A DNA stretch of 22,071 nt from an archaeon (GCA_043813875.1 JBDRKP010000083.1:1-22071); one strand, 5' to 3'. Counted from the first letter of the stretch, positions 8,946 through 12,082 are shown. Program-made: numbers and translations. The notes: generated by a model not told the origin, from the letters alone.

Positions 8946-9197
8946 TTATTCCTGAATTACAATTCGATAGTATTTTATTTTTCCTGCTGTCTTGCTGTTT
9001 CTTGTTATCTCGACGACGTCGCCGATTTTTGCCTTGAGGGTTTCGAGAGCAGGGTCTGTGTCAAGTATTTTTGGAAGCTGGTCCAGTGTGACCTTGAGTT
9101 CTTTTAGAATTTTGGTTGATTCCTCTTTTGTCATTATCCTGTGTTCTGGAACCAGTTTATGTATTATTGTTTCTGTGTTGTTTTCGTTTTCTGCCAT
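8946..9197 (-). CDS. rpoH: DNA-directed RNA polymerase subunit H (Rpo5)
   Basis: HKLVPEH, QLPKILDTDP and GDVVEITRNSKTAG..YYR; GTGGTG SD upstream. Confidence 0.96.
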   Translation of the reverse strand: MAENENNTETIIHKLVPEHRIMTKEESTKILKELKVTLDQLPKILDTDPALETLKAKIGDVVEITRNSKTAGKIKYYRIVIQE

Positions 9198-9233
9198 GTT
9201 GTTTTCACCACATTTTTGGTGGGCCTGACGGGA

Positions 9234-9266
9234 TTTTCTCGTACGTTCATGGTTTTGAACGTTCGC
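9234..9266 (-). other. tRNA intron 3 (33 nt, T-loop position 59/60)
   Basis: Central helix TTCA/AGAA (one A-A mismatch), bulges AA^G and AA^T, intron hairpin ACGTTCA/TGAACGT. Removal restores the T-loop TTCAAAT. Confidence 0.85.
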
Positions 9267-9288
9267 TTTGAACCCGCGACACCCGGGT

Positions 9289-9323
9289 ATCTTCTACAGA
9301 TTCCGGTGCATTAACCGTCTGGT
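9289..9323 (-). other. tRNA intron 2 (35 nt, canonical position 37/38), relaxed BHB
   Basis: Central helix CTTT/GAAG, bulges TA^A and AT^A, closed by the anticodon stem; internal CAGA/TCTG and CGGT/ACCG helices. Confidence 0.8.
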
Positions 9324-9330
9324 TAAAAGC

Positions 9331-9352
9331 TTCACCCTCGTCGATTAAGAGC
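9331..9352 (-). other. tRNA intron 1 (22 nt, position 30/31) with a strict BHB motif; contains the CTT anticodon cassette
   Basis: AGAG-CACC-GG^G-CTC pairs with GAG-GGTG-AA^G-CTTT, giving a 4-bp central helix, two 3-nt bulges and both flanking helices. Confidence 0.85.
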
Positions 9353-9430
9353 CCGGTGCTCTAGCCAGACTGAGCTACAGGCCCACTCCTTGTGTGTTTG
9401 AAAATTGAGATTACTCTATTCTCAGGATAA

Positions 9431-9440
9431 TTTTATAAAT
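9431..9440 (-). promoter_or_regulatory. TATA box for tRNA-Lys, and probably the rpoH operon
   Basis: Minus strand ATTTATAAAA about 50 nt upstream of tRNA position 1. A second ATTTATAAAC lies at 9661-9670. Confidence 0.5.
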
Positions 9441-12006: not shown

Positions 12007-12009
12007 GAG

Positions 12010-12082
12010 AGCCCGGGGCGAGATTTGAACACGCGACCTCTGCCTTACCAAGGCAACGCTCTACCAGCTGAGCCACCCGGGC
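12010..12082 (-). tRNA. tRNA-Thr(GGT), intronless, CCA not encoded
   Basis: Acceptor stem GCCCGGG/CCCGGGC, D stem GCTC/GAGC, anticodon stem TTGCC/GGCAG with loop TT-GGT-AA, T-loop TTCAAAT, discriminator T. One T-T mismatch in the T stem. Confidence 0.95.

Follow-up and report, generated by a model that had tools for sequence, protein, structure and literature searches.

Disrupted and split tRNA genes in Archaea

Among Archaea, tRNA genes with several introns at non-canonical BHB sites are known from Thermoproteales, Korarchaeum and ARMAN (PMC4033280). A different solution is found in Nanoarchaeum equitans, where tRNA-Glu is split and one 3' half is common to two 5' halves, and in Caldivirga maquilingensis, where the anticodon pieces of a tri-split tRNA can be swapped such that synonymous tRNAs arise (PMC4033280). 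The tRNA-Lys gene described here is encoded on the minus strand of a 22,071-nt stretch of archaeal DNA (GCA_043813875.1 JBDRKP010000083.1:1-22071, analysed at its full length and termed the window in the following) and carries two tandem anticodon cassettes, CUU and UUU. We propose that this one gene may yield both Lys(UUU) and Lys(CUU) from one precursor by alternative cuts, and we judge the chance that it does so to be about even.

The gene shares with the multi-intron genes the short BHB introns at positions 30/31, 37/38 and 59/60, an EndA and an RtcB encoded in the genome and the fact that gene finders miss it. It differs from them in that a second, complete and invariant anticodon loop is contained in one of its introns, that the introns can be defined in two overlapping ways and that an anticodon resides on a 7-nt micro-exon, an arrangement without counterpart in the parts of the source considered here (PMC4033280). 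With the tRNA-Glu of N. equitans it has in common isoacceptors that differ at the wobble base, a single body and splicing of the BHB type; in N. equitans, however, separate genes are joined in trans and each pairing gives one product, whereas here one transcript would adopt competing cis folds. The combination of a short anticodon piece with common 5' and 3' parts recalls C. maquilingensis, the micro-exon corresponding to the middle piece, but three transcripts are involved in that organism as compared to a single gene here, which is devoid of leader sequences for annealing in trans. These comparisons apply to the split genes as they are portrayed in the same parts of that source. The split/tri-split class is defined by separate genes and joining in trans; all parts of the two-cassette gene reside in one gene, which thus falls outside this class. 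Two alternative cassettes and a common body, which might be combined into synonymous tRNAs, are present and conserved at the level of the gene.

The sequence-only reading from which this work started knew of no described example, and a search of the full-text literature, covering a minority of the subscription journals, likewise returned no account of a pre-tRNA that is alternatively spliced in cis to give two isoacceptors. As far as searched, alternative splicing by which a tRNA acquires another decoding identity is apparently undescribed, and known cases of swapping join separate pieces in trans.

Anatomy of the two-cassette gene

The tRNA-Lys gene (9217..9384, minus strand, as are all features described below) ends with an encoded CCA. 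The Rfam tRNA model RF00005 matches 9384-9220 from end to end with 42.8 bits (gathering score 29) and with insertions of 59 and 34 nt. ARAGORN missed the unspliced gene irrespective of whether the intron option was on or off. Standard finders miss this gene, and the genomes therefore appear to be without tRNA-Lys altogether. All of its parts lie within 168 contiguous bases in the host genome (G000), and they are contiguous in every orthologue, too.

The first exon (9353..9384) provides tRNA positions 1-30, comprising the acceptor 5' strand, the D arm and the first four bases of the anticodon stem; counting also the opening G of the cassette, it spans 33 alignment columns, of which 25 are invariant among 19 distinct orthologues. 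By hand reading, the acceptor stem is GGGCCTG/CAGGCCC and the 5' strand of the anticodon stem is CCGGG, for which CCCGG (9287-9283) is the sole possible 3' strand. Two 8-mers follow exon 1, GCTCTTAA at 9352-9345 and GCTTTTAA at 9330-9323, spaced by 14 nt. Such a pair at this distance matches once in the window and not at all in 100 dinucleotide-preserving shuffles, and the arrangement is far beyond chance, as the same gene, complete with both cassettes, recurs in 29 of 42 genomes that make up the phylum. The first 8-mer contains cassette 1 (CTCTTAA, 9345..9351), an anticodon loop with the anticodon CUU.

Two sets of cuts can be formulated. Route A removes intron 1 (9331..9352, 22 nt, position 30/31, a strict hBHBh' motif according to hand reading and pair counts) and intron 2 (9289..9323, 35 nt, position 37/38, relaxed BHB) and retains the micro-exon GCTTTTA (9324..9330), which supplies tRNA positions 31-37 with the anticodon UUU. 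Route B removes a single 57-nt intron (9289..9345) that sits at 37/38 relative to cassette 1. Cassette 1 is therefore part of intron 1 under Route A and exonic under Route B. The following exon (9267..9288; positions 38-59) encodes the 3' strand of the anticodon stem, the variable loop and the 5' half of the T arm, and 20 of its 22 columns are invariant in the 19 distinct orthologues. The T arm is broken after TTCAAA by an intron of about 33 nt (9234..9266, position 59/60, relaxed BHB with a 6-bp inner hairpin), as apparent from the Rfam insertion and hand reading. Its boundary can slide within A runs and, by hand reading, its central helix consists of three of four possible pairs with one A.A mismatch, accompanied by the inner hairpin. 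This intron is variable among orthologues, being present in some and absent from others, and some 15 further tRNA genes of the host genome contain an intron at the same place. The last exon (9217..9233) covers positions 60-76, i.e., the 3' strands of the T stem and the acceptor stem, the discriminator A and CCA.

In silico splicing that includes removal of the T-loop intron leads to two 78-nt products that differ in one base. ARAGORN recognizes them as tRNA-Lys(ttt) and tRNA-Lys(ctt), respectively, and both fold as tRNA-Lys. Removal of the introns thus yields a canonical cloverleaf, as is characteristic of archaeal tRNA genes spliced by EndA at BHB motifs, and boundaries within 3-nt bulges next to a 4-bp helix, be it in strict or relaxed form, are found for the 30/31 intron, the 37/38 intron that goes with cassette 2 and the T-loop intron. 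The sequence-only reading had reported the two 8-mers, the intron and micro-exon coordinates of Route A (9352-9331, 9330-9324 and 9323-9289) and the 57-nt intron of Route B (9345-9289) with an otherwise identical tRNA body, and all of these agree with our results. Its account of the anticodon-region introns was also right; the T-loop intron (9266-9234) had been overlooked, although it must be removed in both routes.

Distribution and the search for separate lysine tRNA genes

An exact-pattern scan with one genome per species detected the two-cassette arrangement in 28 loci, all of them from uncultured DPANN archaea labelled Nanohalarchaeota, Aenigmatarchaeota or Nanobdellati, with few bins bearing other labels. 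The class and the phylum of the host genome consist of the same 42 genomes, most of which are incomplete MAGs (57-96% complete). Whole-gene BLAST identified the two-cassette gene in 29 of them, distributed over families f1, f2, f3, f5, f6, f7 and f8, with 70-95% identity over gene positions 1-118, introns included. No BLAST match to the gene was obtained for three genomes with a completeness of 57-71%, and it is absent from the ten genomes of family f4. One genome (G001) has a second two-cassette copy that is identical to those of genus g2.

Only one of the 29 two-cassette genomes (G028) contains another lysine tRNA gene. This Lys(CUU) gene resides on a contig of 1045 nt and has a canonical 37/38 intron, in which the 3' strand AGAG is fully complementary to CTCT; no other genome of the phylum yielded a gene of this kind. 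Other second matches to the Lys query turned out to be tRNA-Ile(GAU) in three genomes and Arg-like in two, one anticodon being our own reading. A separate UUU gene was found in none of the 29 genomes, five of which are 92-96% complete. To gauge the power of the search, we used a tRNA-Glu query designed in the same way, which produced at least two matches in 18 of the 29. When we searched for the pattern CTCTTAA combined with a T arm, plain Lys(CUU) genes were recovered from nine of the ten f4 genomes. In other families the matches did not exceed the level of a reversed-pattern control, and eleven of them that stemmed from two-cassette genomes had no match to a tRNA model in Rfam at E values up to 1. 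The sequence-only reading had pointed out that the lack of a separate gene would speak for dual use, and no such gene was indeed found in the host genome or in any two-cassette genome but G028.

In family f4, nine of ten genomes contain a Lys(CUU) gene and nine of ten a Lys(UUU) gene, and neither type has introns in the anticodon region. The tRNA bodies are 90-93% identical with that of the two-cassette gene over positions 1-42, the f4 CUU gene lies upstream of rpoH just like the two-cassette gene, and in some f4 copies a T-loop intron is present at the same position. The f4 organisms differ in having two genes with one anticodon each and in an anticodon stem that closes with A-U, compared with G-C in the gene studied here.

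The route to tRNA-Lys(UUU)

In BHB motifs, the upstream exon and the intron each end in a hexamer of four helix bases followed by two bulge bases. On candidate introns we applied the general rule that cleavage occurs two bases into each bulge. Pairing was evaluated in an alignment (A1) of 19 distinct orthologues from seven families.

The BHB of intron 1 is composed of a central helix CACC (9358-9355)/GGTG (9336-9333) with the bulges GG|G and AA|G, an outer helix AGAG (9362-9359)/CTTT (9329-9326) that draws on the 3' strand of the D stem, and an inner helix CTC (9351-9349)/GAG (9339-9337). Over these eleven pairs, 98.1% of the alignment cells are paired, while sliding the partner strand by one to three columns lowers this value to 30-66% (maximum 65.6%). 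Central and outer helices are paired in 100% of the cells in the 19 orthologues. A compensatory change from A-U to G-C in the central helix occurs in two f3 genomes and represents one event. The classification of the 22-nt intron as a strict BHB in the sequence-only reading is thereby borne out, and this strict motif at 30/31 is kept in all 19 distinct orthologues. In A1, five of the nine columns of the 3' BHB strand are invariant, as are all seven of the micro-exon, which is required to complete the anticodon stem and loop.

For intron 2, the central helix CTTT (9329-9326)/GAAG (9294-9291) is paired in 97.4% of the cells, the exceptions being two f6 genomes with U.U at position 34. The 3' bulge is AT|A (9290-9288), a variable hairpin lies inside, the inner helix is offset, and just six of the 35 intron columns are invariant in A1.

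In 798 long ORFs of the host genome, AAA makes up 56% of the lysine codons. Neither BLAST nor T-arm/acceptor scans that tolerate T-loop introns revealed a further Lys-like gene in this genome. The UUU product is therefore indispensable, and the two-cassette gene is its only visible source. Route A, which would remove the 30/31 and 37/38 introns, keep the 7-nt micro-exon and give Lys(UUU), is thus well supported by comparative evidence, and we strongly infer that it operates.

The candidate route to tRNA-Lys(CUU)

The central helix available to Route B, CTCT (9351-9348)/GAAG (9294-9291), consists of C-G, U-A, C.A and U.G. Here 75% of the cells are paired, and in none of the 19 distinct sequences does the wobble C pair; the base opposite to it is A in 17 and U in two of them and never G, a base that would pair with both cassettes. 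The shared 3' splice strand hence fits the UUU cassette better (97.4% versus 75% of cells paired). An inner helix is lacking, and the motif is the weakest of all 37/38 motifs among the tRNA genes of the host genome, most of which have central helices of four Watson-Crick pairs. The sequence-only reading had already called this motif the weaker one and noted the C-A mismatch. The table of 37/38 motifs omits candidates C54 and C75, whose assignments are probably wrong, and takes the place of a screen by removal of single introns followed by ARAGORN, which proved too permissive to be informative. Constrained folding gave -55.0 kcal/mol for the Route A conformer, -51.3 kcal/mol for a three-way junction with cassette 2 and -49.0 kcal/mol for the Route B conformer, which is thus the least stable of the three compared, about 6 kcal/mol above that of Route A; such free energies of a precursor are a rough guide and were not used to choose between the routes.

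Imperfect central helices occur elsewhere in the host genome, with two mismatches in Arg(UCG) and one in Val(UAC), as well as in the T-loop intron of the present gene with its A.A, and in family f6 a mismatch at position 34 affects the indispensable route to UUU. Provided that those genes are functional, mismatched or relaxed motifs are evidently processed in the host, and it is therefore possible that the splicing machinery tolerates the mismatch of Route B as well. Taken together with the conservation described below, the comparative evidence favours Route B, and we infer that it may operate today. Other ways to arrive at CUU were considered. Moving the splice register by one base (38/39) creates four Watson-Crick pairs (TCTT/AAGA) but destroys the outer helix according to hand reading, and two-step routes to CUU were ruled out in the same manner.

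The RNA material consisted of the assembled contigs of two RNA libraries, among which a single 161-nt contig (X20) covers the gene and is uninformative on splicing, while X19 yielded nothing. In this X20 contig the anticodon region is still unspliced, there is no T-loop intron and the sequence extends past CCA; it therefore stems from a relative and may represent DNA or a primary transcript. Twenty-four sequencing runs were listed; 20 contain 0.06-0.17 of the words of the stretch and four contain almost none.

The tRNA complement of the host genome

The host genome (1.64 Mb on 90 contigs, 91.5% complete, 44% G+C) possesses, by our own reading, genes with C34 as well as U34 for Glu, Leu(UUR), Arg(AGR), Pro, Ala, Gly, Ser and Leu(CUN). 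In the 798 long ORFs, AAG accounts for 44% of the lysine codons and GAG for 46% of the glutamate codons, and GAG is served by its own C34 tRNA. With C34 tRNAs kept elsewhere and an AAG share of this size, a CUU tRNA is expected from the genomic context.

The T-arm/acceptor scan recovered many tRNA genes of the host that ARAGORN and Rfam had missed. The lysine gene stands alone among 48 tRNA-like candidates in having two cassettes. Four other pairs of loops in the genome are overlaps or oddly placed, and a loose anticodon-loop scan was too noisy to be of use. Four candidates for a second lysine gene (C72, C53, C58 and C70) are not tRNAs, and short-word BLAST returned chance words only.

The rpoH locus and the history of the gene

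The gene for RpoH (8946..9197, minus strand, 83 aa, taken from the ORF list), followed by a split rpoB''/rpoB', is located 20 nt downstream of the tRNA gene and serves as a positional marker of the locus. It follows the two-cassette gene in 28 of 29 loci, and the remaining one is too short to tell. Conservation of both cassettes upstream of rpoH in related genomes, which the sequence-only reading had recommended to inspect, is therefore confirmed, with cassette 1 identical in 19 of 19 orthologues. In family f4, the Lys(CUU) gene precedes rpoH in nine of nine genomes, and the Lys(UUU) gene does so in none of eight. The two-cassette locus is thus the positional counterpart of the CUU gene and not of the UUU gene.

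Whichever state is ancestral, it is hard to construct a history that does without a CUU product. If two genes were ancestral, the CUU gene linked to rpoH would have gained the UUU micro-exon together with the 30/31 BHB inside its intron, and both tRNAs would consequently have been made at one stage, prior to the loss of the separate UUU gene. If the two-cassette gene was ancestral, f4 would have lost exactly the 57-nt Route B intron at the rpoH locus. Precise intron loss can occur by recombination with a copied-back spliced tRNA, and the exact loss of 57 nt would thus most simply imply that a copied-back, spliced CUU tRNA had recombined with the locus.

We calculated an RpoB' tree from 35 of the 42 genomes and 14 database proteins, one of which is identical to that of G026; G009, G013, G014, G020, G031, G034 and G039 were left out as they gave no full-length match. 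In this tree, f4 is sister to the two-cassette family f5 (SH-aLRT 99). An AU test did not reject a position of f4 outside all two-cassette lineages (p 0.35). The tree therefore favours the two-cassette gene as the ancestral state, but the AU test allows either polarity.

Constraint on the CUU cassette and alternative explanations

Cassette 1 reads CTCTTAA in 19 of 19 distinct orthologues from seven families and in nine of nine metagenome loci retrieved with a search pattern that left the cassette free; in f6 the aligner split off the seventh base, which is nevertheless A in every sequence. The spacer that follows is strikingly different. It has no invariant column in A1, and its length ranges from 3 nt in f6 to 30 nt in f8, where the spacer contains a separate hairpin. 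Invariance stops at the final base of the would-be anticodon loop.

It is possible, though in our view doubtful, that Route A alone is used and UUU is the only product. The CUU loop would then be the former anticodon loop of an ancestral Lys(CUU) gene linked to rpoH, now turned intronic and kept by pairing with a GAGGG segment, both within the inner helix of the BHB at 30/31 and as part of an alternative hairpin, while a modified U34 would decode AAG through wobble pairing. As E. coli illustrates, one Lys tRNA with a modified U34 is able to read AAG, and organisms with a single U34 Lys tRNA exist, so that a CUU tRNA is not strictly required. This explanation agrees well with the strict and conserved 30/31 BHB of Route A, with a shared 3' strand that matches UUU and leaves the wobble C unpaired throughout, and with a Route B that has the weakest 37/38 motif of the genome and the least stable of the three conformers. 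It can also draw on two registers in which C-U-C-(U), i.e., four of the seven bases of the cassette, can find partners among the constrained, nearly invariant G/A bases of GAGGG, and such pairing could freeze a part of the cassette. However, the wobble C is invariant although its partner in the inner helix varies and leaves it unpaired in four of 19 sequences, and pairing alone therefore fails to explain the invariance. The last three bases (the equivalents of U36, A37 and A38) have no conserved partner and are yet invariant in all 19 orthologues and all nine metagenome loci. Judged from this pattern, pairing appears to account for only part of the conservation of cassette 1. Further points against UUU as the only product are that the host keeps C34 tRNAs for other split boxes and does not avoid AAG, and that a switch from CUU to UUU at one locus needs a stage with both products unless a redundant copy existed.

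Conservation of cassette 1 for a role other than decoding appears improbable. It might be a protein-recognition element of the precursor that mimics an anticodon loop, or the 22-nt intron might act in circularised form. Excised archaeal BHB introns are circularised and are sometimes stable, and a sequence-specific invariance that is not due to pairing would fit such a role. Against this stands that no candidate partner or precedent was found, that cassette 1 corresponds exactly to a Lys(CUU) anticodon loop in sequence, in length and in its place beside a real stem, and that the locus is that of a CUU gene. Very improbable, finally, is a conventional Lys(CUU) gene with a single 37/38 intron of 57 nt, an unused 30/31 BHB and a UUU gene that is missing from the assemblies: while the position common with the f4 Lys(CUU) gene and the canonical place of the CUU loop in the primary transcript would conform to it, it is contradicted by the failure to find a separate UUU gene in any of the 29 genomes, five of them 92-96% complete, by a micro-exon and BHB strands that are invariant or covarying and by a 3' strand that is tuned to UUU.

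The sequence-only reading had also considered that the CTT cassette could be a duplication relic. This is disfavoured, as the cassette is invariant while adjacent intron bases vary and as the locus is that of the CUU gene; the CUU cassette seems to be under selection. The dual use put forward in the same reading finds backing in the invariant CUU, in the lack of a separate lysine gene in 28 of 29 genomes and in the CUU-gene locus, whereas the poor splice motif of Route B speaks against it.

A model for two isoacceptors from one precursor

We return to the proposal that both isoacceptors originate from a single gene, which is the likeliest of the explanations considered. EndA would perform two mutually exclusive sets of cuts on one precursor, and RtcB would subsequently ligate the exons. 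In Route A, the intron would pair with the D stem's 3' strand and with the first bases of the anticodon stem to form the strict BHB, such that the cut discards the CUU loop, and a second pair of cuts at 37/38 would then allow the 7-nt micro-exon to be joined to the 3' body, giving tRNA-Lys(UUU). In Route B, the anticodon stem would form directly with the CUU loop in the normal loop position, and one pair of cuts at 37/38 would take out 57 nt including the UUU micro-exon, resulting in tRNA-Lys(CUU). Both routes would make use of a common 3' splice site, and the T-loop intron would be removed in either case.

Because of the C.A mismatch at the wobble C, the single step of Route B may not outcompete the two steps of Route A. 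We speculate that a perfect one-step motif beside a preformed anticodon stem would starve Route A, and the weakened motif of Route B may in this way tune the ratio of the products. In its full form, the model would comprise cis-alternative splicing by competing folds throughout the phylum, an isoacceptor ratio set by folding and, maybe, a later resolution of the gene into two intron-free genes in f4 via spliced copies. We would give this combined scheme half of our confidence.

If this is true, a whole DPANN phylum makes both lysine isoacceptors from a single gene. Confirmation would signify that BHB splicing can create tRNA diversity from one locus, that isoacceptor stoichiometry can be encoded in the folding of a precursor and that the disruption of tRNA genes can serve small genomes as a functional solution, beyond being a by-product of intron spread. 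Even with Route A alone, the gene would provide a clean and conserved case of a 7-nt anticodon micro-exon between two BHB introns.

Splicing enzymes

Both a splicing endonuclease and an RNA ligase are encoded in the host genome. There is one EndA, which is of the alpha type (PF01974 with 96.3 bits, plus PF02778) and has 5x89 and 1a79 as its best solved relatives. Compared with the enzyme from M. jannaschii, it contains an insert of seven residues immediately before the conserved KDH. Alpha4 EndAs with an extra loop, the 'L3' loop of DPANN, have been linked with disrupted tRNA genes in the part of the work by Kaneta et al. (PMC5829648) considered here. The ligase RtcB is recognized by PF01139 with 574 bits.

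Additional tRNA-Lys genes in two-cassette genomes

Among the genomes with a two-cassette gene, i.e. a tRNA-Lys gene carrying both CUU and UUU anticodon loops, a sole extra Lys gene was found. It resides on a 1045-nt contig of genome G028 (G028:C147, loci L068/L100) and encodes a separate tRNA-Lys(CUU) with a canonical intron at position 37/38, the 3' strand of which, AGAG, is the full complement of CTCT. The same gene also features a long T-loop intron. A counterpart was sought across the rest of the phylum and none was found; the gene may represent either contamination of the bin or a retained ancestral gene. Genome G001 from genus g1 contains a second copy of the two-cassette gene itself on a 4-kb contig (G001:C121:3300-3412, L077). 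Its type is identical to that of the genes from genus g2, and it probably stems from a mixed bin.

Genomic surroundings of the two-cassette gene

In the window, the sequence TTTATAAAA is present at positions 9431-9439 (minus strand), 47-55 nt upstream of the 5' end of mature tRNA-Lys, and resembles an archaeal TATA box. Only 20 nt lie between the 3' end of the tRNA and the start codon of rpoH, with GGTGA situated immediately 5' of ATG, so that the tRNA and the rpoH-rpoB operon may share a transcript. The top-ranking match to tRNA-Glu is only a few hundred bases away from the two-cassette gene in two families (G017:C3:18985-19046 and G021:C91:2400-2471), which suggests that some lineages have a small cluster of tRNA genes upstream of rpoH. 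Elsewhere in the window, an ordinary, intron-free tRNA-Thr(GGU) gene is encoded at 12009-12082 (minus strand; ARAGORN; Rfam, 64.3 bits).

The open reading frame surrounding the RpoB' match comprises 1098 amino acids in three genomes of the two-cassette family f3 (G017, G024 and G029; L162, L163 and L166) and 1426 amino acids in G019 from another such family, f5 (L151), but about 600 in the remaining genomes. It therefore seems that rpoB is unsplit in one part of the phylum and split in the remainder.

T-loop introns and the splicing endonuclease of G000

In G000, the genome holding the window (91.5% complete), only 26 tRNA genes were detected by ARAGORN and only 25 by Rfam above cut-off. A simple scan tolerant of T-loop introns additionally retrieved Asp, Glu(UUC), His, three Pro, Asn, Ser(GCU), Arg(GCG), Leu(CAA), Leu(CAG) and others. 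T-loop introns of 18-46 nt at or near position 59/60 occur in about 15 tRNA genes when such introns are tolerated (T-loop lengths 25-53 nt), as exemplified by tRNA-Asp (contig C6:235-343), tRNA-Glu-UUC (C12:24022-24139), tRNA-His (C12:24355), tRNA-Pro (C14:36366, C14:36494 and C32:14955) and tRNA-Asn (C39:392). D-loop introns are also present in several genes.

G000 encodes one homologue only of the splicing endonuclease EndA, a single subunit of the alpha type (PF02778 and PF01974; L112:1474-2187, minus strand, contig G000:C67). Compared with EndA from M. jannaschii, it carries a seven-residue insert directly preceding the conserved KDH, which may be relevant to the enzyme's handling of relaxed motifs.
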